Shown: positions 3,170 through 64,000 of the stretch, piece by piece
Layout: each line of letters starts with the position of its first letter
Position numbering within the stretch: the stretch's first letter is position 1
Source: Albugo candida
Taxonomy: Eukaryota
Length of the DNA: 64,000 nt
NCBI GenBank assembly: GCA_040437565.1
Contig: JBDOQK010000040.1
Location: forward strand, 248,001 to 312,000
Direction of reading: 5' to 3'
Translations under genes and position numbers: made by a program
The notes under the pieces: generated by a model
The model's database searches: none
Told to the model about the DNA's origin: nothing
The model's input: the letters and a program-made list of their open reading frames with translations, nothing else

Positions 3170-3654
3170 AGGAACCGTTAAAATCCCTTCAGTTTGATAT
3201 GGTTGGCTGATTTTCTGCTTGCATAGTGCCAACGTACGCTTAGGTAAGGGACAATATGATAGCACTGTCCGCTACTTTTCGACGTGAACTATTTCGCGCT
3301 CAATTTTGCAATCACTCAGTTCAGTTAACGTTCGCGTTTGTACGTGTAGCTGACTATTGCTAGACTATCTCGCAGTTCACGGTTTGTTAATAACACAAGA
3401 ACCTTCTATACTATACACTAAGTCATAATATTTCACTGTGTTAGGGTCATTCATGACACAAGAATCTTATTTTCTATATATTTGGTCGTTGAAGATGGTT
3501 TCCGGGGTGAGAATGATAGACTCTTTTGCAGTCGATATGGTTGAATTCTCAGTCTCGGAAGTAGCCAATCATATCGAATCGTTTCGCACATTAGCCAATC
3601 AGATCAAACTGAGGGGATTCTACCAAATGGACTGAGGGGATTTTTACGGTTCCC
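3170..3654. mobile_element. MITE-like non-autonomous DNA transposon (copy 1)
   Basis: Inverted ends ggaaccgttaaaatcccttcagtttgat / atcaaactgaggggat...gatttttacggttcc; a diverged second copy lies at 38820-39328; no coding capacity. Confidence 0.7.
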
Positions 3655-3924
3655 GTTCTTTAATAATTTGCCTTATTTGCCATGTCAAAAATACCTAATA
3701 TGATGTNNNNNNNNNNNNNNNNNNNNNNNNNNNNNNNNNNNNNNNNNNNNNNNNNNNNNNNNNNNNNNNNNNNNNNNNNNNNNNNNNNNNNNNNNNNNNN
3801 NNNNNNACCGTTCACACCGTCGCATTCCAGCCTCTGTTCTTATGAACGTTAATGCACTTCTAAACTAGATTAGAGATATACACATAACCAACAAAGAAAA
3901 TATGTAAGTCTATATCAGATTTCT

Positions 3925-4499: not shown

Positions 4500-7400
4500 G
4501 CTTAGGATGGCTTTTCTCTTCTCATGCACTGAATTATATATACTAAGCATCTCCTTACGCTTATTATTCCTGACAATCGATCTCTCATGATTAACACGAC
4601 TAGTACAGTTCGATTTGAGCAAACAAACTCATCCACATTGATCAATTGCACGTCTCTTATAACATCGTATACTATCTTGGGGAGTTCCAGACCAGTCTTC
4701 GCTACGTTAGATTGACTTGCGGCGGCGCCTAATTCAAGAGCTTGCACGTTAGCTTCTACGCTTCTCAATTATAATCAATCATTCATTACTGTTAGAGTCT
4801 TTCGCTTGGGTCATGAGCTTCCTATACGAATTGCTGCTTCTGGTGAACTCTCGTGGACTCATATAAACCTGTATTGAACCTGGGAGATAGCCAACTCAAT
4901 CTCTCTGCAGCGAGAAATTCTAGCAGTATAATGATTCATTGTACAGAAATAGGAGCGAGTGCTTCCTCGCAAACGAGTCTATTTTCGAAGATCGGACAAG
5001 CGGCATAAAGCTAGTAAATAATGCATTGGAAAGGATGCGAATAAATCGTAAAATGCACATGTCCGACCCGAGTTCAAAAGCTTTGTGATTTTGGTTGGAG
5101 AACATTGAGGATGTAGATCAAAAAAGAGTAGATTTCTGAGCTTCCATAGCAAGTCGGTTTCCATGCTTCTTGCATACACCACGAAGAAGAATGATGCCTG
5201 CTGGTTTATAAAAACTTACTGCACTAGACACTCGCGAACATTCATGTCTTTAGTACCCTTACTAGCTTCCATAGCAAGTCGGTTTCCATGCTTCTTGCAT
5301 ACACCACGAAGAAGAATGATGCCTGCTGGTTTATAAAAACTTACTGCACTAGACACTCGCGAACATTCATGTCTTTAGTACCCTTACTAGCTTCCATAGC
5401 AAGTCGGTTTCCATGCTTCTTGCATACACCACGAAGAAGAATGATGCCTGCTGGTTTATAAAAACTTACTGCACTAGACACTCGCGAACATTCATGTCTT
5501 TAGTACCCTTACTAGCTTCCATAGCAAGTCGGTTTCCATGCTTCTTGCATACACCACGAAGAAGAATGATGCCTGCTGGTTTATAAAAACTTACTGCACT
5601 AGACACTCGCGAACATTCATGTCTTTAGTACCCTTACTAGCTTCCATAGCAAGTCGGTTTCCATGCTTCTTGCATACACCACGAAGAAGAATGATGCCTG
5701 CTGGTTTATAAAAACTTACTGCACTAGACACTCGCGAACATTCATGTCTTTAGTACCCTTACTAGCTTCCATAGCAAGTCGGTTTCCATGCTTCTTGCAT
5801 ACACCACGAAGAAGAATGATGCCTGCTGGTTTATAAAAACTTACTGCACTAGACACTCGCGAACATTCATGTCTTTAGTACCCTTACTAGNNNNNNNNNN
5901 NNNNNNNNNNNNNNNNNNNNNNNNNNNNNNNNNNNNNNNNNNNNNNNNNNNNNNNNNNNNNNNNNNNNNNNNNNNNNNNNNNNNNNNNNNAGCTTCCATA
6001 GCAAGTCGGTTTCCATGCTTCTTGCATACACCACGAAGAAGAATGATGCCTGCTGGTTTATAAAAACTTACTGCACTAGACACTCGCGAACATTCATGTC
6101 TTTAGTACCCTTACTAGCTTCCATAGCAAGTCGGTTTCCATGCTTCTTGCATACACCACGAAGAAGAATGATGCCTGCTGGTTTATAAAAACTTACTGCA
6201 CTAGACACTCGCGAACATTCATGTCTTTAGTACCCTTACTAGCTTCCATAGCAAGTCGGTTTCCATGCTTCTTGCATACACCACGAAGAAGAATGATGCC
6301 TGCTGGTTTATAAAAACTTACTGCACTAGACACTCGCGAACATTCATGTCTTTAGTACCCTTACTAGCTTCCATAGCAAGTCGGTTTCCATGCTTCTTGC
6401 ATACACCACGAAGAAGAATGATGCCTGCTGGTTTATAAAAACTTACTGCACTAGACACTCGCGAACATTCATGTCTTTAGTACCCTTACTAGCTTCCATA
6501 GCAAGTCGGTTTCCATGCTTCTTGCATACACCACGAAGAAGAATGATGCCTGCTGGTTTATAAAAACTTACTGCACTAGACACTCGCGAACATTCATGTC
6601 TTTAGTACCCTTACTAGCTTCCATAGCAAGTCGGTTTCCATGCTTCTTGCATACACCACGAAGAAGAATGATGCCTGCTGGTTTATAAAAACTTACTGCA
6701 CTAGACACTCGCGAACATTCATGTCTTTAGTACCCTTACTAGATTCTAATTCATAGGAGAGAGTAATATGATCGAATTCTGCACATAGCAAACTTGAATG
6801 TCATCGTCTCTACAGCTGAAAGGTATCATCGTCATCATCAACTAATATTTATAAACGATCGGACTTGGTCGCGATCATAAAATCTTAGTCAACTGTCAAT
6901 GTGAGATATGCTATTTGTTTGACGGCATGTATGGGACAATATACGGATTTTTCTGCAAAAGGCGAGCTTTCATCTGCTTAATAGAATCTTTCTATTAACC
7001 ATTGCAAAGTGCGGTCCAAAGTGAAGCACTCTATAGATATCTGCCAAGATGACTCATCGTCCCGATTGAAGGTTTGAAATTGGCAAAATCTCATCACATC
7101 TAGCATCAGGCGACTAGCTTCAAAAGTCCCTCTTAGGCTATTTTGGTCCAGGGTACCTTAAGTGGGCAATTTGCGGTATCCTATTGATGGTCGCGCTGAT
7201 CAAATTGCGGCAAAAGCCCTTAGAATAGAAGTTTTACACTGCGGATGTCGTTGATCTCTGAAGTGCTTCTATTGCAGATGTGATTGTTCATTGAGTTCAA
7301 CTCGGGTAATTATGGCACATCCGAAAGTCATGAATCTACTTGCATTCGGTTGAAGCTTTCATGAGAATTACTAAAGTGTCACAGGGTGCGACCCAGTGGT

Positions 7401-22749: not shown

Positions 22750-24380
22750 AACTGCATTTTTTGTGATCAAGAAACCAGGTTTCACGATCACAATCAACTT
22801 TAATCACTTCAGGTGTTTATGCAATCAAAAATGCAGCACAAAAATTGTTTGCCATTGACCACAGCAATGATTTTCTACTTCCAACTCAAAATTGCAGTGG
22901 CGATGTGATGATAATCATTCGTTCGAGCTTTACTCTTTGTACAACATCTGAAGAGACCACCGAACGAAGCATTCGAAATCGCAGTTTGGTTATGGGTCTC
23001 CCCATTCACGATGCACTGGTGTATATGCACAGCATATAAGCACCGGTCAAGAAAACAATTCTTTTAAAATATTGATCTCTGAGAATCTCTATTGGCCCGC
23101 AACACATCTCGCATTTGGTGATTTCAATACACCACTCCATCCAGCTGTCGATGATTTAATTGGAATAATTCGTTTCCAAGCAAGTTTATCAGCGTGTTTG
23201 AAATAGCATTTACACTTGGGTGTGGTAGACGTTTACCGAATCAAACATCCGACCGAAAAGAATTTACATGACCATTAACACGCAAGAATGGACTAGATTA
23301 CATCTGCATGCAGGAAGAGCTATTCAATATGGTACACAAAGACTGGATATATACGTCTACGACATACAGAAGATCATCAGGCACAAAAAGTAACTGTTGC
23401 CAATCTAGATTGAACTCTAAGCCGAGATTATTGGAAATTTACATGTCGACTATTCGACTATTCTCAACCTGCTGAGAAAATTAGATTAGAATCGAACATG
23501 GAGCTAGAAAGGGGAGGACAACTTCGACTCCCGGAGTAATGCGGGAGTGAAGAATGGTTTCATTTTGACGGCCAGAAAACCATAACTCTCAATGACAGCT
23601 CCACAATACGAGCCTGCATCCATTAGTTTTATCTTCCTCGATCCAAAGATGTCGCGAGTCCATTTTATCCGCCCCTTCTTTTTATGCTCGCTATATCCGG
23701 CTATATGACTTTCATTTATGCTTGATGTCAAGCGTGTTGGTATATACTTGAACTTTGAATAAACGGGCGAATAATATTGGCACGCATTGCATCACAGTTA
23801 AACAATCCCATAGCCCCTTCATATGGCTGGAGCTACTACCTACTCAAATCAATTCTACTCATCCCGTCCACGCTAGACTTATATTGCATGTTCAATTTGG
23901 CAAAAAACAGCCAGCGTGGAAAGACTGTCAGGAAATCAATTGGATTCATGGCCTTCTTTGCAGGTAGTATTTCTACAATTCTTCTGGACCAATCATAATC
24001 GTCACTTTTTGATCAGAGATCATCAACTCCAACAATTCCAGCACTTTCTGTGATCGACACGGCGTGTAGTGCGCACGTCCGGGACCTTTTACGGAAGTAA
24101 CACGATCAAGACGAACGCATTCGGATTTCTAAGGTGCTAGATCAACTCATAACTAAATGACCATTTCGTGGATTGACCGGACGCGACGATCTTGCTCCTA
24201 TTGTGGAGCGCACGACTTTGCAAAGGACGGTACTTAATGCCAGTTTTACAGCTTTCATATCTTTTACTCGCTAGACACGGTCTCGTGCTGTGGTTGTCTG
24301 AGGCTACCGCAATGCAGGACTATTAGCGAGAAGACATTATTAATTAGTCTAATTCTAGTAGTATAGACACCTTCAATTGA
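22750..24380 (+). mobile_element. LINE relic: APE endonuclease remnants joined to the ORF2 C-terminus and 3' UTR
   Basis: GVYA, VDVYRIKHP, LDYI and DH motifs; 23800-24180 is similar to the LINE at 45900-46260; the 3' end tagtctaattctagta.tatagacaccttcaa is shared with it. Confidence 0.7.
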
Positions 24381-27410: not shown

Positions 27411-29900
27411 GTTATAATTCTTCTGCACATCCAATTGTCTCATATTGCGACCATGAGAAATTGCGGATTAGGTTAAATCTGCGACATTTCTATTTGAAAT
27501 GTTTGTCTCCGTGACACTGTGCGAGCGTTTTGGATGAGATAATGTACGTATCGCGTTCTAAGCCAACGGCACCAATTGATCAAAATTGACGTTCTCCTCG
27601 ATCAATTGATCAACAATTCCGTTTAATGCTTCCTTCTCACAACACATACGTCTGTGTTGGATTGTCAGTTCATCGACACGTATCGCTTGCACTTGATTTC
27701 TCTCCTTTCTTATTCCTAACTTCACTTGAAATCACAAAACTGTTGTTCATTCGACAAGTGTATCTGTTTGCCCTTTGAGTTGCAGGAAATATACAGACGA
27801 CGAGAGCACCCGATCTCGCTGATCATATAATCGGCCTCGCAAAGCGAAGAATTTNNNNNNNNNNNNNNNNNNNNNNNNNNNNNNNNNNNNNNNNNNNNNN
27901 NNNNNNNNNNNNNNNNNNNNNNNNNNNNNNNNNNNNNNNNNNNNNNNNNNNNNNGTTATAATTCTTCTGCACATCCAATTGTCTCATATTGCGACCATGA
28001 GAAATTGCGGATTAGGTTAAGTCTGCGACATTTCTATTTGAAATGTTTGTCTCCGTGACACTGTGCGAGCATTTTGGATGAGATAATGTACGTGTCGCGT
28101 TCTAAGCCAACGGCACCAATTGATCAAAATTGACGTTCTCCTCGATCAATTGATCAACAATTCCGTTTCATGCTTCCTTCTCACAACACATACGTCTGTG
28201 TTAAATTGTCAGTTCATCGACACGTATCGCTTGAAATGACTTCTCTCCTTTATTATTCCTAACTTCACTTGAAATCACAAAACTGTTGTTCATTCGACAA
28301 GTGTATCTGTTTGCCCTTTGAGTTGCAGGAAATATACAGACGACGAGAGCACCCGATCTCGCTGATCATATAATCGGCCTCGCAAAGCGAAGAATTTTGC
28401 TGTCACCGCATTTTTCTCTGATACGATTTGATCGTATTTTCATGTTCACGACACCAATTGATTGCTTCGGCATCGAAATTCCATTATTCTTGTCTAAACA
28501 TTTCGAGCTATTTACTGACGTCTGATACTTGTATTCGAACAGCTTTGTCCTCTTCTGCGTGTCGACTTCGCAAAGCTTTGATTGTAAACTTGAAGCTGAT
28601 TCTGTATCGGCTCGAGTTCCAGCGCTCGTTATAGCTGTATTATTGTACCTTCGTTTCAGCAACGATTCCTTCGTAATTGCTACCAATCATTGCTCTGTAA
28701 ATGCAGCTGCTTTACTTCTCCGGCATGCTTCTATTTACGTTGTGAGATCGTCAGTTCGCTTGATTATCAGCTCGTAGCTTTTCGACCTCAGCTATCAAGC
28801 GCTGATACGAGTTGAATCCTCGCAGTTTCAATCTCCCTTGTTTTCCGCTTGTTTTCTCGATTATTGAAGACCGTTCCCCATTGCTCGCAATTCCACATCT
28901 CCTTCTCAAACGCATCCACATACTGTTAGATCGATGTGACCGTACTGTTCTCATCGTTCCTTTTGTCTGGTGTAGTCGATAACATCTCTGCTTGCTCCAT
29001 AAGATGCGGACACATGACCGAGTACTTCCTCCATTTGATCCTCCTCGAAGACTCTTTCAGCCATCCGGTCAGAGCAATTGGCTTTCTGGCTGCTGCTTCT
29101 CGTTGCGGTGCCGGATACGCTGTTTTAAGATCCGGAAAGACGAAGTTGAGATTCAAAATTGCAGACATCTAATACCTGCCGCCAAAAACATTTGTGCGCT
29201 GGAAGATCGATCGATGGAGTTGATAGTTTCTACTGTAGCCATATACACTGTCTGATTTCATTTCAGTGACCGTTCGTATCGATACAGCTTGTTATCGAGC
29301 AGCGTTGTTACATTCCGCTGCTTCCCTTAAAGCCAAGTGGTCTATTGCCAGGGGAAGCAGTTCTATTTTCTTTTAGGCTTCTTCGAGCTCATTTTCCATC
29401 CAATCGCTGGAGCAATGATTTACAATGGTGGCATAAATTCGCTGCATTGAGACAAAGAAGCCACTGATTGGGCCGAAGGATGTACGCTGGAAATGCGGCG
29501 AGGAGGCATATCGGCTGACTGTGATAGTGTCGGATCAAACGAGTGGTTTCTGGGTCTTCTATTCCTCAGTTCTTCACTGTCAAAAACAGCTTGTGAGGAA
29601 GACACGTAACGCGTTTTACTTCCAGCCGGAATGGTATCGTACTCGGAATATATTACGCAAATTTCACTCGATATAAAATTTCAGCATTGCAGCGAGATCA
29701 CGACACTTTAGGGCCGAAATCCGACACAAATGCTCTCTGATTTCCTGAGTGATTTGACATTACACCATGTAGCGAAATCGAACAAAAGGCGTCACACCAT
29801 CCGAATGATTTGGAACCGCTACGAGAACAACGTCGTACTATTTCGGATATACTTGTCTGATTCCATATTAAGAAGAAGTGTCGTGTGATTTGGGAGGTTA
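27411..29900 (-). pseudogene. Decayed coiled-coil-like gene, duplicated at 33500-34600 and partly at 52200-52500
   Basis: Shared peptides DTESA...VDTQKR...RFARPII and EVEKL.AD; clear DNA similarity between copies. Confidence 0.6.
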
Positions 29901-31116: not shown

Positions 31117-32394
31117 TCATGAATCTCTCCCGAAACGCTTACGTCTCAACTTGACGTCCGATTCTCCACGCCTAGTCTTGAAGTCCAATTTGAACTCGTT
31201 CTTTGTGGTAGTCGTTGATACACGCTCCCTCACTTGTGACAGGAAATCCGGCAGTTGAAATGTAGTTGAGATTATATCAAACCAGAGCGATATCGTATTG
31301 AAAGTTGCCAAAAGGAGACTCCTAACTTTGACAGAATTCGTATAACATCACCTGATCCGATGTATCTGGGAATAACCATTAAAAGGATATCAATTTCATG
31401 AAGTTAGCTCCAGTAATCTGAACTGGACTTCTTAGCGGCACCTTTAGTAGCAAGCTGCTGGAGTAAGGTCGTTCGTTACCGAATCGTTGACCATAGTGTT
31501 ACTAAGTATCAGATGCTTCACTATGGGAAAGGTTCAACCTTAGTTCAAGATTCGATGATGTTCATTTGAGGAATCTTCCTGTTTGAAATAGCCACCCATC
31601 CGTTCAACCATACTGGAATCAACCAATCGATGTTACTTCGCACGTCTGAGTTGTTCAACTCTATTAGACGTCTCCCCTTTTCTGTCTGTGAACGCTTTAC
31701 TCTTCTTACCTTCCCAATCCCAAATACGATTCGGTATCTCGATGCATCATTTTTGTAAAAGCTGTCTTTCTACAACTCCATTGCCACTCTCCCGAAAATC
31801 CAGTAATGTTTGTCATGGAAGCGGATATGTTTATACATTATGGCCAAAGGAAGCGGCTTTGCGATGTGCGGCACAACTTTAATCGTTGCATATGCACTCG
31901 AAGTGATCTTCTTCGAAATGGTTTCTTACATGTGCAATTCCAAGGCTTTAGATACCATGAGCTTTACATAACTAATATCGAACTCGTACCTCTTTGAATC
32001 TTCCTATCCAGGATATCTCTACCATTTTTACTTCCCAGCTATCAGTAGGTACACTCGTGAACCTGATCGTTCTTATAAGACTGAAGTCTACTTTTTGTGA
32101 AGTGTCCATTGATAGTTTGGAATTTGGCTCCGTTAAAATGATACTGGAATTTATCACATCTTTCATTGAATGCTGCTAGATTGAGTTTCATTTTCAGAGG
32201 CAGAGAACCGGAACCTTTACGACTGTACGCGAGTTGTTGTTGCGGATTAGCGACCATAGCGAAGGATAGTTTGAAGAAAGAATCATCAAGTGAACATTTC
32301 AACGGTTTAGTAAAGGGGCATTCCTTTTTTTCCTCAGATTGTGCGACGACCGATGTCGCGGCGATGAGGTGGAGCAGCAGATAGACTTTCCCAT
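31117..32394 (-). pseudogene. Disrupted putative secreted protein, divergent pepsin-like family (copy 4)
   Basis: ATG 32394 with an immediate frameshift into KVYLLLHLIAATSVVA; ECPF...CDKFQYHFNG; LSMDTS; WEVKM; YWIFGRVAMEL*KDSFYK. Matches the 27129 gene. Confidence 0.65.
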
Positions 32395-33499
32395 GGTCGA
32401 CGTGGATGTTGTTTCCAAAAATATTAGAAAAAGAGCAAATAATGAGAAGCACAAAATGGTTGCGTCTGAATTTCTTCTAGATTTTCAGCCTACATAGCAC
32501 ATTCTACAGCAGACGAGTCACGAGTGAATGGATTAGAAATAGCGAACGTGATATAAAATCTAGGGTAAGATGTCACAATGTCGTACGCTACAATGATATA
32601 TGTAATCAACACGGCTGAATATTGCTCGATACGAACAAAAGCTACATTGTTTACAAACATAGTTCGAAGCCCGTGGAAGACACACTGAATTGAGCCAGCT
32701 TTGGATCGAAGCCTCAATGCGTTGCCATGTTAATAATCTAATTTCTAGCAAGCTCCTAGGACCAAGAATAAATGATAAAATTCAATGCACTACTTTAACT
32801 CGCAAACTCACAAAAAGGACAGAAATTTTCTACCGATCTGATAGTTGCGTTTTGATTGAGATAACGTACGTGTCGCGTTCTGATTTAAAGGCCAATTGCT
32901 CNNNNNNNNNNNNNNNNNNNNNNNNNNNNNNNNNNNNNNNNNNNNNNNNNNNNNNNNNNNNNNNNNNNNNNNNNNNNNNNNNNNNNNNNNNNNNNNNNNN
33001 NTTGTGCGACGACCGATGTCGCGGCGATGAGGTGGAGCAGCAGATAGACTTTCCCATGGTCGACGTGGATGTTGTTTCCAAAAATATTAGAAAAAGAGCA
33101 AATAATGAGAAGCACAAAATGGTTGCGTCTGAATTTCTTCTAGATTTTCAGCCTACATAGCACATTCTACAGCAGACGAGTCACGAGTGAATGGATTAGA
33201 AATAGCGAACGTGATATAAAATCTAGGGTAAGATGTCACAATGTCGTACGCTACAATGATATATGTAATCAACACGGCTGAATATTGCTCGATACGAACA
33301 AAAGCTACATTGTTTACAAACATAGTTCGAAGCCCGTGGAAGACACACTGAATTGAGCCAGCTTTGGATCGAAGCCTCAATGCGTTGCCATGTTAATAAT
33401 CTAATTTCTAGCAAGCTCCTAGGACCAAGAATAAATGATAAAATTCAATGCACTACTTTAACTCGCAAACTCACAAAAAGGACAGAAATTTTCTACCGA

Positions 33500-49886: not shown

Positions 49887-52800
49887 AAGTATCTAACAAG
49901 TACACTTCTCATGCTTCTAATCTGTTTTATCGCTTCTATGATACTGTTCTTTAAGCCCGATAACTATGATACTCACGCTGTGATATAGAAATCTTTAGTC
50001 TTATAAACTGCTCGATCAGCTAGTAAGACTCGTTCCGCCTTGAGATTTTTCACATTCATACACACGCGCCACCTTCGTATTATGTCCTCAATCCATTACA
50101 TCGCGCCTAGGCCCTATGATGTGATCAAGTCGAATTCATCACAGATAACGACAAATCTCGCTCGTTTTTCAACACCCACCAAACACGATGAGCCTAACCG
50201 CTCTTCTACAATCAATCCATTGCAAGCTTGCTCTCCTCAATCGTGTCGCTCTAGAACCGATGCCTCAATCTCTCTCGGAAGCTTACGTCTTAATTTGGAG
50301 TTCGGACTTCACGCCCGGTCCTGAAGTCAAAATCGATCTCACTATGTGGGGTGGTCGTTGACGCGCGCTCCTTTTTTGTAAAAAATAGCTCCAGTCCTTG
50401 AGGAGCGTTCTGAAAACACTTTTAGAGACGTACCGATCTGAAGGTTGAACTGTTTTAACAATGAAAATATTCATACTTTCCCAATTTTTTGTCGGCTGGT
50501 GATCCTCTCGTTTCAAAGCCTAGAATTCACTGATATATAAAGCGATAGCTAGTATAAGCCAGTTATGGTTTCTCGAAGCTCAGTCTGCATCAATATCGAT
50601 AAAGGCGCTTGCATCATGACTCGAGGTCACGGGGATGTCACACACTCAGTTCACCGAGCGAAGTCAAGATCTATGTGCAGTAGCCACACGAACACTTGCT
50701 TTTTGCGAATAGTTGCAATCAGAATTACCCAACAACATTGCAGTGGTTGTGAAGAACGTATTTGATACCCTGATTTCGTGCATCCCGCGTTCAAGCATCA
50801 TTTGTGGCCCCAGCATCATACGTTCACTGTATCTGGCTGCTATGTGTATGGAAGCAGATCGGGAATCATCGATGAGTTCTTCATGTCTTCTATGCTGTGT
50901 TGATGTGATCAGTAATATGCCGTATTTGTAAGGATACGGCTACAAAGGAAGATATTTTGAAGCTGCCAAAGAAATGCGTCAAGTTACGTCATCTAAATCG
51001 TTCGCATGGAGAATCATTACTTCGACATACCTAGTCCAAGCTCAATTCACTACGTACTTGTGCGTAGCGATATATTCCTATCCTTTATACAACGTGATTC
51101 AGGTCATTTAAGGTGTCGCATCATCCAGTGGCAACGCCCAGAATGAGATCCCCCAATAATAGTTGTTGACCATAGCATTCATGAGTATCAATTGCGTCAA
51201 TCTGGGAAGAGTTTCATCATGATGTACACTGGTGAGCTGAGAATTCCGTGTGACTCCATGATAAGCATTTGAGTTTGTCGATTGAGAAGGGGAAAATTAT
51301 GAGAGGACGAGCTATTTCCTTGACGTTCCTTTCTGTTTTCTGCTTACACTGTACCTCTTTTTATCGACAATTGATCTTTTAACGCGGTTTCCTTGCCTTT
51401 GGCGCCTCCCATGTGATCTGTGATGCTCATATGGGAGAATTGACGTATTATAATCCTGATGCGGTCAATCGACTTCTTTATCATTCGCCCTACCTACTTT
51501 GAATTGTTCACGATCAACACTTCTTTCAGGCTGATCTTTTTATGGATATATTGATGCTTACTCTCGTCGCCTTTTTCATGTACATTTGATATCTCTGAGT
51601 TGGTTGACTCTACCCGTCATTTTCCCTTTTCCGGAATCGAAAGACTCAATTTTGAGCATTACATTTATGAAAGCTGCATTTATGCAGCTTCAATGCCTTT
51701 TTTTCGAAAATTCATTTATCCTAGTTATGAAAGTGGACATACATGCTTTTATGGCGATGTTAAGCTTTTTCCGTTCGGCGGCAGAAAACGAATCTTGTTT
51801 ATCGCTCGACGCGTTGTCCGTATATGCTTTTTTGCAAGACTTCTACCAATACTAGATACAACTCATCGACTTCCATATTTTCCCATCCAACGTTCCTCCT
51901 TCATTTCTTCTAGCCAGCTCCTAGACGTATTATCTCTGACTCGAGCAATGTTATTGGAGCGACGTTTTGTTAGTGTCCATTGATAGTATATGAAATGATG
52001 TCTAAAGATCGAGCTTTTATCTCCGAAGCAGAAACGGAGAGTTAGAAAAAGCTAATTGGCCTGTAATTGCGGGTTATCGATCACAACGACCAACTGTGTA
52101 AACAATTAGCATGAATGGATAATGCTAATGAATTACAGCGTTTCCGCAAAAAGGCATTTCACTTTCAATTGTGCGATCGGTATTGCGGCGATGAGATGTA
52201 GCGACCGATTATCTGATGCTTTGGTTCTGCGACCATGAGATATTTTTGATGAGTTCTCCAACAAATGCACATGTAAGGTCTATTTAAATTGCATTTATCG
52301 CAGATATATACGTTGAAGTTCCGGGACCCTTTGCGAGCGTTTTGGATGGGACACTGTACGTGTTGCATTCTAAACCAACGACATCAATTGTTCAAAATTG
52401 ACCTTCTCCGCGATAAAAGTGATCATCAATACCGTTTGATATTTCCTTCTCACAAACGTACGCTGTGTTGTATCGTCAGTTTATTGACATCCTAGGCCAA
52501 AAACTGTACATAGTCATTCCTCTTTTGTTTGAATGCCTTGCATGCTTTATTTCCTTTTATTACAGCCACGAAAAAAAAAATTGCGCAGCGTACGATCTTT
52601 CCCGTGGGGTGTTTTAAATATAGCCGATCTTAGGAAGACATGTGAGTAGTAGAGAAGGCTTTCTTCGCAAGTATTCTCGGTGAAATGTATCTCGAGTATA
52701 AAAAATCATAGCAAACTCGCAAGAAGGCAGTCTATCAAATATCAACGTGATTAAGTCAATTCGTTTGCACTTGTGCAAATGAGCCATCCAGAAATATCAT

Positions 52801-53116
52801 CTACGACATGTAATCATTCACAGCATCGAATTTTTTTCTGTTGTAAGTTCATCTATAGATCTTCCTGCAAAAATGGAGCTGTGTGACTTATTACGTCGCG
52901 TGCAATGAAAGCATCAAACTTGATGAAACTCCGACTTCCGTCTAATAAACGGAAATCCTTCTAGAAGATTCATGGTTAATCTTCATTGTGTATTTCGTGT
53001 AAACTTAGAAACGTAGTTCGCTTAGCGGAGATTATTGCCAAGCGTTTTTAGGAGACATCGATCATTCTTTTACTTGGATTTAAGAGTTGAAAGATTAACA
53101 TACAAGCTCTATATAT

Positions 53117-53173
53117 CCTAAAGTAACTTTTACCTAAAGAGGTTACTTTCGCTGATTATGCTTCTTCAGTAGG
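53117..53173 (-). ncRNA. Type I hammerhead ribozyme
   Basis: Minus strand: CCUA-CUGAAGA-A-GC(AUAAUCA)GC-GAAA-GUAAC(CUCUUUAGGUAAAA)GUUAC-UU-UAGG. Conserved core, three stems and a CUU cleavage triplet. Confidence 0.8.
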
Positions 53174-55118
53174 TTCTTACGCTATTAGTGAAGTGAAGTC
53201 GTCCCACACGGATATTAGGATTTAGGGTTTCAGACTTGCTTCCTGTACAGTCAAGGATGGCTGGAGGGGACAGGTCGGGGTTCCTAAGCGTGGACGGACA
53301 AAGTAAATGTTGCAGTGTCGGAGGTTTGGTGTAGCAGACCGTGATCGGTGCTTCGACCGAAGCTTCGAGTTCTCGGACTTGTAATATCCTTCGAACCACT
53401 GCACGGGGTGGACCATTGGGGATATATCTGAGCTTGTAGACGATGGGGACCGGTGAAGTGACGGGCTGAAAGTCGTTGCTGAAAGAGCTTTTCGGAAAAC
53501 CGGAAGCAGGAGCTTAGGTAAGTACCCGCGGGCCTGTAACCGTTTATAGAAAAGATTGACAATCCGCCGGAAGTCAGCTGGGCGGCTGTTATGAGATTTG
53601 TATTTCTTCAGTAAGCCGTAAATGAGTCCTTTGAGGATACCGGGGGAGTGTGCGCTATTGGCTGGAATGTATAGATAGAGATTGAGAGCCTTCTGGTGTG
53701 TCTTAGTGATAAGACGAGAACCTTCTTTCAGCATCCATAAGTCCAGGTGCGCAATCTGGGTCATGTGAACAACGTGAGTGACCCGGAGGCGGGATAGCTT
53801 AGTGAACATAGCTAAGAACCGCTTATAATCATAAGAATCCGGTCCTGGGTCCCAAACCAGGAACAGGTCGTCAATGAAGCGCCGGTAGTACAGTAGTCGT
53901 TGTTTGAATTGACTCTATAGAATATCCTCAAAGTAAGGTACTTACATTGAGGCGAAAGCTGTCGCGACAGGAGTTCCCATGGCAGTTCCCCTTTGTTAAG
54001 GCCAGACGATAGCACAAAGGTGAAGTAGTTGTTCTTCATGGGGAGCTCCAGACCGCTAAGGATAGCCGTGTACCATTTATGTCCAGAGATTCGGCGGCTG
54101 ATAAGACGAATTGCGTCGTCGATAGGAATGTGGGTGTAGAGTGACTCAACATCAGCCGTAATCAGTAGAGTGGACGGAGACACGGTAATAGCCGATTGCT
54201 CCTCAAGAATTAATGTGGGCTTCTGAGGTACGAGGGTATGCTGCGAAAGAAGGGTTGGAGTTGAAAGTCCAGCCACTTCGATAATCCTTGGAGCACACTG
54301 GCGGAGTTGGAGACAATAGGTCGAATGCAAAGAACAGGATTTTTTTTTTTTTTATGGATCTTTGCGAGTGGATAGAACACGTTGAGTCGCGTATTTTCAA
54401 GATCGGACATAACGATGGCTGTTGTTGACCAGTCAGAGTCGTATGAAAACTGTTTTGCTTGGTAATGGTACCAATTACGGACACGGGTTCGTAAAAGGCG
54501 AAGCAAAGCGTCGACCGGAGCAGTACTACGTGTGTAAGCCGTCGGATCTTGGAGATGATCTAGGCAAAGACGGGTAAAATGCTCAGTTGTGAAAAGGGCC
54601 GGACCGAGATTTTTGTCGGCAAGGACGACTTTTAAGTCCGGACGTTGGCGCAGTTGATGGAACGTAGCTTGTTGTATATAATTCAAGTTTCGGCGCCGGG
54701 TCGGGGTCCAGCGAAAGTTGTAAAGGTTTCGCTCAACCGTTTGGAGTGTCATTTTGATAGCCGGAGTAGCAGGCTGGGGTTGAAACGACCGATTAGGAAC
54801 ATATATTTTGCGAATAAAGTTCCGATTGTAATCCCCAAATTGCACACGAAGTCGGATGGATCGCATGAAGTCGGGGAGGGCAGAAAGAAGATCAGAATGG
54901 ACCAGTGGCTTAGGAGTAGGACAGAATTTCAAGTTAAGTCCTAACAGACGATTCAAAGCCGGAGGAACAGGGATTGTATTAGGGACAAAGTTATGGTAGG
55001 CTAAGTTTCTAGCAAAGCTGTTATCCATAGTAGTAGAACGGCTCGCTAAAAGAGCTAGTGCGTTCGCTTTGTCCGACCTGTGGAGTTGGATCGAGTCTTG
55101 TTTGGAGCGGGATCCCAC
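53166..55118 (-). pseudogene. Penelope-like reverse transcriptase (ORF2), frameshifted
   Basis: LGLNLKFCPTP, ADKNLG, FYPLAKIHK, IRPIVS, TADVESLYTHIP, GTAMGT (~53972-53990), RRFIDDLF (~53860-53885), YIPANSAH, LQARGY. Confidence 0.9.
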
Positions 55119-55129
55119 TGCTTTCTGGA

Positions 55130-55983
55130 CTCGGAAGACTTGTCGGGCTTTCTGGTGGGCAGCTTTTTAGACAAGTCGGGTTTGTTTCCTGCCGCTCTTG
55201 CGTTTCTTTTGGAGCGGCTTTGCCTGATTTAACCTGCTGGGACTTCGCAGATTTGGCGCCAGTCGGTGCCCTTTGTCAGCCGGCGCGTGCTTTTAACGAT
55301 TGTTGAAGCTGTGCAATATGTGCTTTCAAGGGCCCAATAGCTTTCTGTACGTTTTGTTGTACATGATGCTGAACAGACTCCGTGAGAGGACTCGTGGCTT
55401 CAAGCTCCATAGCAGCAGTTTTCTTAGATGCTTTGGCAGCGGCTATCTCCTCCCGGGCAACGTGCTCTAAATGAAGAGTATAGTCTAACCGGTTGAGTTC
55501 AGATGATAACCTGTCCCTAACTGTTAAGTAGTCATGAACAGCTAGGGAACGACTGCCAGACTCGGCGTTCAACCATATATCCCACGGAGGGAAGGATGCG
55601 CCAAGTCGTATATGAACCTTCTCATAGAAGGTCTTGATCTACAGTAGCGTTTTCTGCGGTAACGCGTTTCGCTCCGTAACGAGGGCTTCAAGCTCTAGGG
55701 CGGTAGCTTTTTGAATATCAGCCCGTAATTCCGTTTCATTATTTCCAAGTTGCTCTTGCAAGGAAGCTTAGAGGGTCTCAGCTACAGTAGACTCAAGTAG
55801 CTTGGAGTCTTAGAAAGTGGCCTTTAACTTAACACAGCGAGGTGTGTCACTGTTAAGTTTGGCAAGTGCCTTTTCCTTGGCAGTGATCTTTTGTGCTAAA
55901 AGACGGTACTGCTTCAGGGTGGAGTCAATGAGGTCCACTATATGGCGCGGCGGACTAGTACATACTGATTTGTATGGGACCAT
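55130..55983 (-). pseudogene. PLE ORF1: coiled-coil protein with basic tail, containing internal stops
   Basis: ATG at 55983; LLAQKITAKEKALAKL, ELEALVTERNAL, KAHIAQLQQSLKA, then a K/Q/S-rich segment directly upstream of the RT. Confidence 0.6.
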
Positions 55984-56547
55984 CCTTAAGTTTTTTTAAT
56001 CTTGGGTTTGACACAAGATAGGCAGGATTGGTAAGGGAAGAGTACCGTGAGTTCTATCAAGCCAGCCGAAGCGTGATGCCGCCAAGAATCGGTAGTACAC
56101 TAGCCTTTGTCGAAGTGCCGTCGGGGTAGGGCTGGGTTCCGCAGTTGTATGAGGTTGCCGTATACCGTTCGAACAGATTCCGATGGTTCCTTGCCGGTAC
56201 TCCCCAACGTTAAAGGTTTGCAAAAGCAAAACAGGGTCTATCCAGTAGGCACCGTGAGCTTAAAGCTCCTAGCGAACGTAGCTAGGGTGGGCGGAGTAGC
56301 CGTTCCCTCTACAAGAACCGCAGTTTTTCTGGGTTCGGAACTAACCTGGCAACTTCTTGTTCGACGATGGAGACGCTCTAGGCTCCAATCGTCCAGGTCG
56401 CGTGCCCATGCGATCATGTGTACCTGCCGGGTAAAGGGTGAACTTTGAAAGGAACACCCCTCCCCCCGCGTGTAAGAACGTTGAAACGCCGCTCCGGAAG
56501 TACGGTGGTTTCAAACCCTCACGAGTTTAGCATTAAAGAGTTGAAAG

Positions 56548-59500
56548 TGCTGAGGGTAAATTGGAAAGTGTATATATATGAAGATAGGTCCTTAGTTCAC
56601 TATCAACTAATCTGAGTCTATACCACAGTCTTCTCTATCGTGAACTCTACTCCGTTTGTAACGACATTGCCAACGCTGACTTTCCGCTTAAGTAATCGTT
56701 GGATGTACTCCGAACATTCTCAGTAGAAAGTCCGTGTGTGAGTAACACGATTCCCGAATATTTTCTTCAACACTCCCCCTCGACGCAATATTCCTGGTGT
56801 TCACCGGATGAACCAAATCTTGGAATTGCTTCGTCGAAATGGGCTTCAGCAAGAAATCAGCAACGTGTTTTTGCGATTGAACGTACTCAATCTTAATTTT
56901 ACCATCCTTCAGATGATCACGAATAAAATGATATCGAACATCAATATGTTTTGCCCGACTTTGATATCCGTTATTCATCGCTATAGCAATCGCACTTTAA
57001 TTGTCATTAAAAAATAGTTACGTATCGACCAGTGTTTGCCTTCAACTCGGATAGTAAATGATTGACCCATATAACTTCCGGCATGCAGAGTGAAAGGGCG
57101 CTCTGCTTCGGCCGTACTAAGTGCCACACTTTGTTGGATTTTTGACTTGAAAATCACTGTAGCATCGTTTGCCATGACCATGATTCCAGTTACATATCTT
57201 CAGTCTACCTTTCTATTCGCCCAATCTGCGTCACTGTACGCACATACCTTCAAAAACTTCCTGCCGCCTCTGTAAGTGATCCTATTCTCACTTGTTCAAG
57301 TACCGCAGGACTCTTATCGCTGCTTTCCAGTGCTCTTCATTAGGCTGGTCGTTGACATCTCTAGGTGGGTAAATGCATACGTCTTCCTCTAGATGTCCAT
57401 TTAAGAAAGCGGTGTCGACATCACATTGATGAATATGGAAACCTTGGTGAAAGCAAGTCGATGAGTAAACTCTGATAGAGTTCATATTTGCAACTGGTGC
57501 ATATGTATCTATATAATCAACTCCATATTTTTGTCGAAATACCAAACAACGAGTCTAGCTTTGTGCTTTTGTATTTCACCAGTTTGGTTTCGCTTCTAGT
57601 TGAATACCCATTTCTTTCCGATAACCTTCATATTCGGTTTCGGCTTTGTCAGAGTCTACGTGTTCTTTTCTTCGAGCCCTTGGAGTTCTTGACTGAGGGC
57701 GATTATCCATTATTCTGAATGTGCACATCGCATTGCATCTTTGTACGCTGTTGGTGTGTCTAACGCAGCACTGGCGTGCTCATGTTCGATTCGAAGTTGT
57801 TTTTGTGGTCGATTTTCTTCCAAGCTGAAAACAATAGCATCTGATAATTCGTACGGAACGATTGAGTCGGATTGTTTGCCGTGAAGTAGGTTGTTGGGCC
57901 CAGATGATGTAGATATTGGAGAGTGATTACAGCCATCTAATCTCTCCCTGAGCACAAGCTCCGTATTAGCAGTGTATCAATATTGACGTCATTTTCACTT
58001 GGATCAGCTTCTTGGTTACCATAATCTTCATCAACCTCCATAGCTCCATCATTTTCATTGGTCTCAATGGGCAGTTTTGCTTCACCAACAATTTCGTTTG
58101 CCCCGAACTCCAATCTTTCTGTAGACTGATCTTGGCATAAAACTTGAACATACTTCGATGGTTGAATTTCTTGAAAAGTAGCTGAACGCGTTATATCCAA
58201 ACAATAAGATTCCAAATTACATACACGATAGATATCCTTTTGTATTTTCGAAGTAGCCCAAAACATGCATTTGTAGACCTTGTCAAATTTGAATCTTTTC
58301 GACTTGTCGATATGTGCGTGCATAACCACGAGCTCCAAAAACTTTCAAATCTGAAATATGTGGTTGATATCCATAACATACTTCAAATGGAGTTTTATCT
58401 TGGTTTGCTGCACATGTTACTCTGTTATTATGTACATAGCAGTATTCATAGCTTCTGCCCACCATTCTCCTTCCACTTGCATGTGCGACAACATGCATCT
58501 TGCTCTTTCGGTGATTCTTCGATTCAATCTCTTTGCAAGACCATTCTGCTGCGGTGAATATGGAACTGTTGTCTGGTTTACTATTCCAGCCTTTTTGCAT
58601 ATCGCTGAAAAATTTTGATTGATATATTCTCCACCATTATCTGTACGCAAGCACTTGTTCCTTGTTCCATGTTGCATTTCGACTGGAGCCTTGAATTCAA
58701 AAAACTTACTTAGCACTTCCAACTTGGTTTGTATGAAGTAATAATGAACCAGTCTTGAATAATTGTCGATGAAGGTGACCATATACTTTGCACCGCCTTG
58801 AGAGTTTTCGTGTATCGGTTCAACAACATCGCTGTGAACCAGTTCTAGAAGCGAATTTTTTTTCATCATCCCGTATCCAGATGATTGAAATGGTTGAACG
58901 GACGACTTCCCATTCATGCATCCTTCATAAATTTCTTGTTCTGCACAGTCTGATGCTGATGTTGTTTTCACACAAAACCTTTCAACAAAGTTCTTCATAT
59001 TCTTCAATTTATTGTTTGATAAATGCCCCACTCTTGCGTGCCAAATTGATTTATTCACCAGCTTGTATTCCTCTTTTGCTACTTATTCACCGAGATTTGC
59101 AACTTTAAGTGCATCACATTCAAGTACAAACAGTTTTTTTTCTTTTCGTTGTATTCGTACTATACTTTCACCACCACTTTTGAATACACAAGTCAAGTTG
59201 CCAAATGTTACTAAAAGGCCTTTTTCTGCTAGAGCAGAGACGGATAGAAGCTTTTGATCGAGATCGGGAACGTACAAGACATTGTCAATTCTGATATATT
59301 TGTTGTTCTTCAGTTACGCGTAAGTGGTGCCGACTCCTACCGCATCCCCATTGCTCCCATCAGCAATTGAAATCGCAACTCTTTTTTTCAAAAATTGCTT
59401 CCACCAATGTTCTTGTTTGTGTCCATATTTGTTACATCGAAAACATTTCCCCTAAAACTTTGCTGCTTGTTCGGCATTCTTGTTTCTTCGACCTCTCCTT

Positions 59501-60329
59501 GGTCGATTGTTGTGGATCTTCGGTGCCACTTCATCGGATTCCTTCAGATTGATCCTCTCATATTCACGAAGAATCATTTTCTATGCCTGAAACAAATCCA
59601 TTCCAGGTATATTCTCCATAATCTTCACAACCTGATCACTTCCGAGTAGGATCCCAAGCTGTTCTTCCAAGTTGACGACAGCTCCATTTGCTTGCATTGA
59701 CATACATAGTTCATCAAATCTAAGGAAATGAGCCATCACATTCCCGCATTTCTTCATTTTGAATTCATGTAGTTCCCGTTGCTTTTGAATTTTGTTGTGG
59801 AATGAGCGCCTTAGGAAGAAGTTCTTTAAAATTCCCCAAGCTTGAGCAGTTTTACATGCTGACCTACCCATAGACTGAAAATTGAGATTGATCATGGTTG
59901 AGATTATCGCGAATGCCTTCATATCGTTGACCTTCCAATTTGAAGCAGGAATGTTAACCTCGTTGGGTATTTTACTTCGTCGATGTGATCGAGCAATCCC
60001 TTACGCATCAGCTGCATTCGAGCATTGAACTACCAGCTGAAATAATTTTCTTCTTTCAACATATACATTGTCGTGAAAGTCGTAGCTAAAGAAACAATAA
60101 GGTTGTGTCTGTAAACCTGTTGAGGCTAAATTGAAAAGTGTATAGTTATGAAGATAGATTTTAGTTCACTATTAGCTGATCTAAGTCTATATCACACTTT
60201 TCTCTATCGTAAAATCTATTCCCTTTGTAACGACATTGCCAATACTGACTTTCCGCGTAAGCATTCGTTGGATGTACTCCTAACATTCTCAGTAGAAAGT
60301 TGGTGGATTCCCGAATGTTTTCTTCACCA
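56548..60329 (-). mobile_element. Ty1/copia LTR retrotransposon, defective
   Basis: LTRs 56548-56772 and 60118-60329 (TG...CA); PPT AGGGGGAG; gag, WHARVGH, LRTDNGGEY, PQQNG, DVDTAFLNG, VALSTAEAE, KHIDVRYHFIR; internal RT deletion near 57340. Confidence 0.92.
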
Positions 60330-60799
60330 GATATTTCATGCAGACCCTTCAGGATCACGCAAGTGTCTTTTCCGTTCAGTACGCTTTAGTATGAATTCTA
60401 TATTTGTCATGGATTTTGGGTAGGGTTGAGCGCATGTTCGGCAGCTTATGTTCAAATGTCTCTAGCTGCTATAGAGTTCATCCCAGCGCAGCTTTACAAA
60501 TTCTTCACTCTGCATTTGATTCATTTGCTATCAATGTCAGTGACTCTGATGAAGTGTCGGCTAGCGGATGTTACCAGACACCAGACAATTCTACTTGTGA
60601 GCCACAAGTAAGCTACGAAAAAGAACACCATGCTCGTACACGTTTGTTATCGAAAAAAATTGAAAGGACCAGAAGCATTATCCATAGATTCTTGAGAGCC
60701 ACACTAACCTCATGCTTCATGCGTTAGGAGCGCCGGTTGTAAATCTCGAAATCTCTCTAATATGAATCGAACACTCTTTAATCGGTACCTTAATTTGCT

Positions 60800-61930
60800 T
60801 GCAATGAATTCGTTTACGTCTTTAAACTAATACAGGAATGATTTAGATTACCCCCCCCCCGCACTTGCGCTTTGCCTTTTTGTAGAGCGAGTATAGTGAA
60901 GGTGAAGCGCTGTTGCAAGCGCTGTTTCGCTGAAAATAGCACTTGCTTTCTGCATGTCGCATTCATTTGATCCCATAGTAGCCATGAGTAAACTGTCTCA
61001 GTTTCGGGGGGACCTTTCGCATAGCGTTCGTGCACTGTACCAACTGAGAAAATGCACACATTCTTCCTTCCAACCATCTGCTTCATCAAACTATGAACGT
61101 TTTGTGTGCTGTAAGGCAATGATTTCGTGCAGTCTAACATGGCAACACGTCAAAGCATTCAAAATGCGACTTTCACACATGTCGTAAATTCTCCTTCTCA
61201 TAGAGCGACATCTTTTCCTTTCCCTCTCAACAAACAGTTGTTGGCCTATCGTCGGTCGGTACCAAAGCCAATAGTTGGTCCAGCTCGACAAATCCCTTAT
61301 ATCCACATTGCGACCACATAATCAAACTGTCCTGATTGTCAATCTGTCACACGATTAATTGGACCACCAGCGACTAATGATATACAGATGCGGCAAGCTT
61401 TTCTGCGGATGATGAAGTGCACATATTTTCATGCGACGTTTTAAATAAAGGTATTGCCGCGTTTTGAGAAAAAATTAACTATTATGGTGGTCATAATCAC
61501 TCCAAGACTTCAGTAGGCTGCTCAAATCCATAGCGGGGTTTGGCGTAATGATTTTAAACGTAAGCGCTGTAGCCACAGGTGTCAGACCTGGCAATTTCAC
61601 CTGACCACGTATTTTTCGTGTGAATTGGCTATCAAACTTTTGAACCATCACTTCGACGGAATATGTAGCACGTGTATCCGTCGTAGCAAGCTCCCATCTC
61701 AGCTCCTCATTATTTCCACACGGGAATATGTTTCACGGGAGATCTATTTTCAACGTAGTATAATTCTTGTGATTTGTCTCGGAAAACTTAAACAGTGGCG
61801 CAACCGTGATATCAGTGATTCACTTTAGTTGGATCTGCATGGCTTCCCCGTCTGGATCGAGAAATAAATCTCGCACTGCTATATATTATGAAGCTGCGCT
61901 AACGTCGCTTTCCAGTGATGACCCGGCTCT
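60800..61930 (-). mobile_element. Probable Ty3/gypsy RT relic
   Basis: Degenerate pieces (VVA.DI, RILNALT, PPET) in gypsy RT order; heavily broken. Confidence 0.35.
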
Positions 61931-64000
61931 CTNNNNNNNNNNNNNNNNNNNNNNNNNNNNNNNNNNNNNNNNNNNNNNNNNNNNNNNNNNNNNNNNNNNN
62001 NNNNNNNNNNNNNNNNNNNNNNNNNNNNNNNNGTGTCTGGTCTATGGTTTGGTTTCGTATAATTTAATCTATGTGCCAGCGTTGACCCATTGGTTCGAAT
62101 TAAAACGAGTGTTATGTGGCTAAATAGTTGAAGAGAGTGCGTATCACAGTCACAAGGTATCGAGGTCAAGGAAATGAGATGTCGTGGGGTGTAAACTATA
62201 CATGATATGCGGATTCCGTTTCTTGCTTTTCTTCAGCAGAGTAGAAATCTCTTTCAAAATGTTCTATTGCTGCTTCATGCTGCAAATAACTTCTTGTTGA
62301 AAAGCGGATGTTCATCTTGATCAACGCTGTGAGTTGCATTATAGGTACGCTTTGTAGACTATTGTGTTATGATCGCTAAGTAGTTGGGCAGGAGGTAATC
62401 TACTTTTCAGATTTGGGCTGAGAGTGCCACATACCATTTGTTATGAATTCTGAAGGACGGGTGTTGCGCAGACCAATAATAAATGCGAGAACTAGGTCCG
62501 TATTTATTGCATGATCACCACGCTTTGGTATATTATGTGTCCCAACGACGACTTTTGTTTGCGGAAATGGATTTGGATAGGTATGATTATACAGTCGCGG
62601 CGCAGTGAAAAACTCCAAACGATTTGCTCCATTTATATGAGCCCTGATCAATTGGATGGATTATTCCTTCACGGAAAGAGTAATCACGTGAAGCGTCTCC
62701 TAACCGTCAAAAAAGGTTCGATTGAAGTATCTGTAAGTGCTTGCAAACAATCTAGACTTTCTGGAGGAAACTAAGTTATGCATGAGGATCTTCGGAGTGT
62801 AGATGTCTCATGAGGGATCAACTTGACCAAGCTAATATTAATCGCGCTAAAGGAGAAAACGACATGGATGATATGTGTCTCCGTTTTTTGCATAAAGTAA
62901 CATCGTGGCCAACTGGTGTAAACTGTGAATCGAACTCCACTTAATGTAGTGCATGATCAATGGTGAAGCGTTCGGATAGCAATCATTCCAATTGTGATTG
63001 TAGTTTTTGGCGTGAACCCAGCAGATATGTCATCTACTTTTATTCTCTGAAGCCTATCTCATTTGAATCTTGTCTGGACTTTGTTGCCATTTGTTGAATT
63101 ACATTATGCTGGTCCTTTTCCTCGCATAATTCGAGCTTCATTCATAAAAAAATCATATTCGAGTAAAAGTCAGAAAATGAGTAAAAGATTAATCTTACTT
63201 TTCCACGTGCAGTCGTATCGTACACTCTTCTGGTAACTGCAGTGTGTCAGTTTGCTCAATTCACTCCGCTTCACTTGCTACACATATCACGAATTTTCGT
63301 TTGATACGACTCCAATCTCACCACTATCAACGTACTGTACCGAGAATAAGAAAATGTCTTTGATATTCTTCATCAGCAATCGCTCCACAGCGCTACTGGT
63401 CTTTCATGGTGTAAACTGATGGACTTGTGTGATATGACATGGATAGTGGTTGAGACTACAATCCAAACGATCATAAGAAATCCGCACCATCAAGTGTAGT
63501 AGTTCGTCTTCATAAGCGCATGTCGTCCAAAATTCATCCATCATTAGCAATCGATGCTGTAACAAATCATTGGTGACGTAGTTGGCAACTACAATTTCAC
63601 GCTCCAAGAAAGATAAAAAGCAAAAACGAACGACCATGCCACTGATAGACTGACATTCTCAATATTGCAGGCAGGATCAACGCTGCGACAGTGAATTCAA
63701 AAGGCTGCAAGCAGTCGGGTCGAAATGATCAGTCCGTTGTTTATTTGAGGAATTGACTGACGTGATCTTAATGCATCAAGAAAAGAATATTTCTAATTTT
63801 TTGACCAACCAGCAATTGATATTCCACAGATTCCTAATGAAGCTTGGTAAGTGACGATGGAACGGGTACAGCACCGCCGTGTGTGGCCATCAACACCTTA
63901 ACGTGATGGTTCCAAATAGTATGTGTGTAAAAGCGCCAAAGACCGGACCGCAATGTCTGTAACGTTGGAACAAGCGCGACACATATGTAAACGAAATACG

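Follow-up and report, generated by a model that had tools for sequence, protein, structure and literature searches.

Among Penelope-like elements (PLEs), the closest described counterparts of the motif analysed here are the hammerheads of the endonuclease-less, telomere-associated elements of fungi and protists, which Cervera and De la Pena (2014, PMC4209133) describe as type I ribozymes of the terminal region that are read from the sense strand, have short helices I and II beside a large helix III, lack recognisable loop-loop contacts and are active as monomers. According to the same paper, PLE hammerheads typically have an additional base inserted between position 9 and position 10.1, along with a conserved G10.1-C11.1 pair. 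For the metazoan endonuclease-bearing PLEs (Penelope, Poseidon, Neptune and Cercyon), the form described there is a different one, in which helix III is reduced to 1-2 bp or absent, helix II has 6-8 bp, and the hammerheads are thought to act as dimers (PMC4209133). Athena/Terminon elements of bdelloid rotifers are also endonuclease-less PLEs and, as presented in PMC6431247 and PMC8557442, they carry a hammerhead beside a reverse-complement telomeric stretch near the 3' end, with ACACCC as the repeat unit. In Athena, this stretch is placed immediately downstream of the hammerhead (PMC6431247).

Hammerheads of endonuclease-lacking PLEs are already known, and the motif found at 53117..53173 on the minus strand of the 64,000-nucleotide stretch of Albugo candida DNA analysed in this study (hereafter the window) is a real, family-typical further case. 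Like the fungal and protist hammerheads reported in PMC4209133, it is of type I, belongs to the sense strand of the element's terminal region, combines a helix III of 6 bp with short helices I and II, and appears to be without recognisable loop-loop contacts; they also have in common the extra base that follows A9 and the pair G10.1-C11.1. It differs from them in being present as a single copy within a decayed, internally located element. Helices III and II of 6 and 2 bp also set it apart from the metazoan form, which is resembled only by an alternative register of the motif, fold b, considered further below. In regard to Athena/Terminon, the window likewise joins an endonuclease-less PLE, a hammerhead and a reverse-complement telomeric stretch near the 3' end, but the order of these parts is reversed: in the window and in its closest relative found, a metagenomic locus designated L001, the stretch stands upstream of the hammerhead, at a distance of 41 and about 80 nt, respectively, and its unit is CCCTAAA-like instead of ACACCC. 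With the hammerhead families of Rfam, the window motif has the catalytic core and the three-helix junction in common.

The core of a hammerhead is formed by C3-U4-G5-A6-N7-G8-A9 and G12-A13-A14, type I being the topology in which both RNA ends lie in helix I, and the cleavage site is formed by the A15.1-U16.1 pair followed by an unpaired H17, which is any base except G. The window motif, which was delimited from the sequence, by a descriptor scan and with a covariance model of its family (R2), contains all these parts on the minus strand. Helix I has 4 bp (CCUA 53173-53170 with UAGG 53120-53117) and is open, as in the type I topology, with helices I, II and III of 4, 2 and 6 bp. It is followed by the catalytic core CUGAAGA (53169-53163), one extra A between A9 and G10.1 (53162), a helix II of 2 bp with a loop of 7 nt (GC 53161-53160 with GC 53152-53151), GAAA (53150-53147, GAA corresponding to 53150-53148), and a helix III of 6 bp with a loop of 14 nt (53147-53142 with 53127-53122), composed of the A15.1-U16.1 pair and GUAAC/GUUAC. 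The cleavage-site triplet is CUU with U17 (53121) unpaired, which places the predicted cut between U53121 and U53120. Both conserved pairs of hammerheads are present, A15.1-U16.1 as A53147-U53122 and G10.1-C11.1 as G53161-C53151. An earlier note on this DNA, made by reading the letters, had listed the helices, CUGAAGA, the extra A, GAAA and CUU; every one of them was found on the minus strand within 53173..53117, and the descriptor scan of both strands of the window recovered the same coordinates. This register is referred to here as fold a.

The element that hosts the motif was recognised by tblastn with the two ORFs of L001. Matches to the reverse transcriptase (RT) ORF of an endonuclease-less PLE extend over 53286..55211 on the minus strand as four pieces in three frames, with 49-53% amino-acid identity, which implies at least three frameshifts. 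Upstream of it in the element, 55234..55989 (minus strand) holds an ORF1-like region encoding a coiled-coil protein, which matches residues 97-350 of L001 ORF1 with 37% identity (E 5e-37). The translations contain the RT motifs DKNLGPA, LAKIHK..RPIVS and RFIDD, the first of them in the window ORF 54210-55166 and invariant in five homologues; the homologues found in databases are RT proteins of about 530-545 aa. In a Pfam search of the window ORFs and five full-length homologues no GIY-YIG domain was found, and the RVT_1 model stayed just below cut-off in four of the five homologues and was absent from the window fragments. A PDB profile search returned weak generic RT matches only. The endonuclease-deficient PLEs are described as having a conserved DKN/DKG motif ahead of the RT, a thumb behind its motif 7, no endonuclease and a coiled-coil ORF1 (PMC8557442, PMC13159263). 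The features of the host fit such an element, a Coprina- or Athena-like one.

The window copy itself is dead and decayed, with the RT frameshifted, the 5' end lost and no second terminal repeat present. Every family-invariant position is kept in its ribozyme. Directly upstream and on the same strand, a fragment of a copia-type LTR retroelement occupies 56592-60305, with Retrotran_gag_2, rve and RVT_2 ORFs and with direct repeats of 145 nt at 56592-56736 and 60161-60305 that are 87% alike; this copia element probably accounts for the missing 5' end of the PLE. Contigs assembled from four sequencing runs over 51500-57000 presented the locus in near-identical form and without joints at element boundaries. 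The contig of X20 record 25 covers 53011-53212 with no other letters, and informative variation of the motif was not found among these contigs. In three of the runs, contigs have their ends between 53023 and 53136, and a raised depth was seen at 52420-52603. The contigs of X18 and X19 differ by a single additional C behind 53212, a position in the spacer that separates the hammerhead from the telomere-like stretch; this is a polymorphism of 1 nt or a strain difference. Repeated sequences were also noted in other parts of the window. A tandem array at 5014-6915 is built of a 125-bp unit in at least 13 copies, many of them identical, and repeat families are located at 27411-28397, 32339-33301 and 52320-52417, with near-identical duplicate pairs 544 nt and 663 nt apart; the segment at 52320-52417, downstream of the PLE, is a third copy (84%) of one of these families. 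The window sequence contains at least one N.

In regard to the 3' part of the element, the order in the window is a TGA at 53232-53230, directly followed by the two-unit telomere-complement stretch AACCCTAAATCCTAA at 53229-53215, a spacer of 41 nt and the hammerhead, all on the minus strand. The stretch lies past the RT end and ahead of the hammerhead, and nowhere else in the window is there a telomere-complement match of this kind. The last RT homology ends at 53286, which corresponds to residue 750 of the 770 residues of L001, and the hammerhead starts 113 nt further on. By homology with L001, the RT should end near 53226-53232, and since the homology reaches residue 750 of 770, the TGA at 53232-53230, today out of frame, probably once ended the RT. 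The earlier note had placed the motif right at the end of the RT frame. This holds for the frame as it stands today, as the TGA inside CUGAAGA (53168-53166) closes the ORF 53166..53513, which is in the frame of the last RT homology, but not for the probable original frame: the stop within CUGAAGA would be a read-through of a shifted frame, and the motif would start about 57 nt past the original stop.

The same layout is found in L001, where the RT stop TGA (3629-3631) is followed at once by AACCCTAAAACCCTA, so that the TGA-AACCCTAAA junction is common to L001 and the window. On its 5' side, L001 consists of a long (CCCTAAA)n/(CCCTAAAA)n array, in which CCCTAAA and CCCTAAAA units are intermingled over roughly the first 150 nt of the contig (positions 1-150), a spacer of about 80 nt, a hammerhead at 230-290, ORF1 and the RT ORF. 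On the 3' side, the same 80 nt are repeated, and a second hammerhead starts at 3727 and is cut by the contig end. The telomeric repeats at the start of the contig indicate that the L001 element is located at or beside a telomere. In the window, on the other hand, the two-unit remnant was found but no array, so that the copy does not lie at the end of a chromosome there. Two further loci, L008 and L046, have repeated segments that extend about 50 and 62 nt, respectively, past the hammerhead, with the contig continuing beyond them, which places the ribozyme near the 3' end of the unit. The earlier note had inferred an element boundary about 25 nt away, a distance of the right order in the light of these two relatives.

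These loci come from a search of metagenomes in which an alignment of five homologues served as the query and which yielded 78 loci encoding related RTs; a scan of viral contigs found no relatives. When the descriptor was applied to the 78 loci, 40 motifs were obtained in 36 of them, every one in the sense orientation of the RT, with the opposite strand giving none. In relation to the RT match, 15 of these motifs lie upstream and 25 downstream, and the match itself contains none. When all 78 loci were resampled ten times and scanned on both strands, a single motif turned up, which corresponds to 0.1 per resample. Several features that the descriptor did not impose were then counted in the 31 unique motifs. 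A is the optional extra base in 30 of them, G stands at position 10.1 in 30, and U at position 17 in all 31. Helix II comprises 2-3 bp in 30 of the motifs; a helix III of 5-6 bp was counted in 27 and a helix I of 4-5 bp also in 27. With A, G and U at the three positions and with helices of 2, 6 and 4 bp in the same order, the window motif is typical of the family in all six features. Conservation of the core in sister elements, on which the earlier note had staked its reading, was likewise found in the related metagenome loci, the catalytic-core columns being invariant across 29 aligned relatives.

Two covariance models were built, both with the window excluded: R1 from 11 related loci with a supplied structure, and R2 from the 40 matches of R1 in the related loci. 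With R2, 59 matches were obtained, distributed over 52 of the 78 loci, and all 59 are on the RT strand and flank the RT. Two terminal copies flanking the ORF represent the pseudo-LTR pattern of PLEs, and this pattern, with two hammerhead copies around the RT, was observed in L001, L008, L011, L046 and L066. The 59 matches, comprising 46 distinct rows, were also used to follow covariation, in an alignment that was fitted to the model and is hence biased in favour of the structure. In it, 93.2% of the cells are paired, and 11 of the 13 pairs changed on both sides. The covariation that the earlier note had proposed to check across other genomic copies is seen here, as compensatory changes, in the related metagenome loci. 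The covariation score of 0.379 compares with 0.122 in shuffles, none of 500 shuffles reaching 0.379, and slid registers did not exceed 0.064. Among the pairs, only G10.1-C11.1 and A15.1-U16.1 are invariant.

Many of the relatives have an additional structure in the form of a distal helix I. A distal helix of at least 6 bp was present in 19 of the 31 unique relatives, compared with 183 of 2000 random positions; typically it has 7-8 bp and lies past a 3-nt bulge on the 3' strand, with examples in L020, L025, L037, L041, L056, L061, L066, L069 and others. It may be a site of tertiary contact in the relatives. In the window motif, neither a distal helix I nor an internal loop was found at the flanks, and L001, L008 and L011 are also without the distal helix.

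Applied to the window, R1 matched the motif with 30.1 bits (E 2.4e-6), and R2, run with default filters over both strands of the 64 kb, with 34.3 bits (E 1.3e-7), as the sole significant match, followed by the next one with only 9.2 bits. With filters off over 52000-62000, R2 matched 53116-53174 with 35.7 bits (E 8.3e-9), in the register proposed by the earlier note; the score of L001's own hammerhead under R2 is 36.4 bits. The E-values of both models are rough owing to a short calibration, and the gap to the next match is still large. A second hammerhead was sought in the window with R1 and R2, and with R2 without filters over 52000-62000, and nothing above 12.4 bits was found. The observation in the earlier note of one copy and no duplicated pLTR is therefore true for the window.

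The default-filter matches of R1 (30.1 bits) and R2 (34.3 bits) align the motif as fold b, an alternative register at 53132..53174 on the minus strand in which the 3' half is taken from the first of the two CUUUAGG copies. In it, helix I has 5 bp (53174-53170 with 53136-53132) and helix III 2 bp (53147-53146 with 53139-53138), and the predicted cut falls between U53137 and U53136. By nearest-neighbour energy, fold b reaches -1.5 kcal/mol compared with -4.7 kcal/mol for fold a. We prefer fold a, because fold b is energetically weaker, scores slightly lower under the full model and is unlike the family. The sequence CUUUAGG occurs twice on the minus strand, at 53139-53133 and 53123-53117, 16 nt apart, and thereby offers two possible 3' halves and cut sites.

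Two checks that the earlier note had named turned out differently from the above. Searches with Rfam 15 gave no hammerhead match, either in the whole window at the gathering score or in 52800-53500 (701 nt) at E up to 10. The motifs of the relatives were missed too, in 20 related loci with the family motif at the gathering score and in 7 of these loci at E up to 10. As Rfam is blind to the motifs of the relatives, its negative outcome on the window says little, and the Rfam 15 models leave this hammerhead variant uncovered. RNA folding behaved in a similar manner. The stability of the 71-nt region 53110-53180 is no better than that of shuffles (z +0.53), and over 53174-53112 the hammerhead fold a has -4.7 kcal/mol, whereas the minimum-energy fold has -8.0 kcal/mol, a gap of 3.3 kcal/mol. 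The hammerhead is thus not the minimum-energy fold in the window, but the same kind of gap is seen in the relatives, whose hammerhead folds lie at a median of 4.8 kcal/mol above their own minimum-energy folds (31 unique motifs), and minimum-energy folding is accordingly uninformative for this class.

In our opinion, the motif is very probably the hammerhead of the 3' untranslated region of an endonuclease-deficient PLE. The earlier note had assigned it to the 3' end of a Penelope-like element, as a type I hammerhead of the sense strand, an identity upheld by the same architecture beside related RTs, by the compensatory changes and by the match to the family models. From what is known of hammerheads and of PLEs (PMC4209133, PMC6431247, PMC8557442, PMC13159263), we infer that the motif would cleave, where it would do so, and what the cut would do for retrotransposition. 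In an active element, the sense transcript would fold into three helices around the CUGANGA/GAAA core, and active copies would cut themselves after U17, for which the position predicted in the window is between 53121 and 53120. The cut would trim read-through RNA to unit length and leave the ribozyme body at the 3' end, with the telomere-complementary stretch ending up about 95-110 nt upstream of the new RNA 3' end. In tandem or pseudo-LTR arrangements, the hammerhead copy lying upstream would likewise trim the transcript at its 5' end, so that RNA of unit length would be produced. The telomere-complement stretch could then pair with the G-rich overhangs of chromosome ends and provide priming of reverse transcription without an endonuclease.

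Other explanations of the motif should be weighed against this one. A chance likeness to a loose hammerhead descriptor might be suspected from the failure of Rfam to match it, from the fold stability equal to that of shuffles and from the frequency of the bare core CTGANGA...GAAA, which occurs 12 times in the window compared with 7.4 expected, that is, at chance level. A loose match of this kind was indeed met at 22945-22994 on the plus strand, with helices of 3, 2 and 4 bp; neither R1 nor R2 matches it at E up to 10, and it was discarded as chance. For the motif at 53117..53173 the situation is the opposite one, since the full three-helix descriptor at the strength of the candidate was never found when the window was resampled 100 times with a first-order Markov scheme, and a looser version of the descriptor gave a mean of 0.04 matches per resampled window. 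Moreover, family models that excluded the window found this single site with E-values between 1.3e-7 and 8.3e-9, and its position and the flanking telomere stretch agree with L001. The chance reading is therefore close to refuted, and we hold it to be extremely improbable.

Genuine homology still allows that the motif is mainly a structured 3' fold presenting the telomere stretch to overhangs, or a very poor cleaver. A helix II of 2 bp, a helix I of 4 bp and the missing distal helix I speak for such a role; for the same reasons, the ribozyme activity of the window motif could be weak. The competing fold, more stable by the 3.3 kcal/mol given above, and data from a vertebrate PLE (PAc), for which ribozyme cleavage is reported to be dispensable for insertion in vitro, point in the same direction, and the same report describes no RNA-seq reads ending at the cut site (PMC11167929). 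These vertebrate data call for caution about the role of PLE hammerheads in general, and in a review the in vivo role of the motifs is called 'still a mystery' (PMC7761336). However, the invariance of the core in the 29 aligned relatives, together with U17 in 31 of 31, fits selection for catalysis better than selection for shape alone, and a fungal PLE hammerhead with a large helix III is reported to cleave at 0.16-1.97 per min in vitro (PMC4209133), which makes a purely structural or nearly inactive motif unlikely in our view. Alternatively, the hammerhead could be the 5' leader of a next tandem unit that is now missing, with the telomere-like stretch as the junction of the units. L001 provides a precedent, as its segment of 80 nt plus hammerhead follows telomeric repeats twice, once behind the array at the contig start and once behind two repeats that succeed the RT stop, a pattern expected from head-to-tail additions at a chromosome end. 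On the other hand, the repeats of L008 and L046, which end about 50-62 nt past the hammerhead and share the upstream flank, fit a terminal repeat of the 3' end. Furthermore, no ORF1 homology was found downstream of the window hammerhead, and a comparison of 53116-52300 with the sequence that precedes ORF1 gave nothing meaningful, its best match being 16 nt long. Such a leader is thus an improbable source of the motif, and the hammerhead of the PLE's own 3' untranslated region remains our preferred explanation.

In regard to the wider meaning of these results, the importance of the window copy on its own is small, as it is a decayed relic. The case illustrates that a reading of the raw sequence can catch a ribozyme that a standard Rfam scan misses. 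As Rfam 15 misses the family wherever it was tried, and the family includes 59 hammerheads in 52 of the 78 loci, a family-specific model would improve the annotation of these retroelements. For PLEs, the locus adds one more lineage in which an endonuclease-less element combines a hammerhead with a telomere-complement stretch, and the order of these parts, which differs from that in rotifer Athena, bears on how reverse transcription is primed at chromosome ends. Going further, one may speculate, on what is for now a doubtful footing, that the form with the bulged A, a helix II of 2-3 bp and U17 is a distinct and widespread subclass, lacking in Rfam, of the endonuclease-less PLEs of protists and fungi, that the telomere stretch placed upstream of the ribozyme in the window and L001 serves internal priming on chromosome-end overhangs, and that the duplication of CUUUAGG may give two cut sites 16 nt apart. 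If this were true, the upstream order, the reverse of that in Athena, would place the priming stretch inside the cleaved RNA, about 100 nt away from its 3' end, and reverse transcription would initiate internally on the overhangs of chromosome ends.
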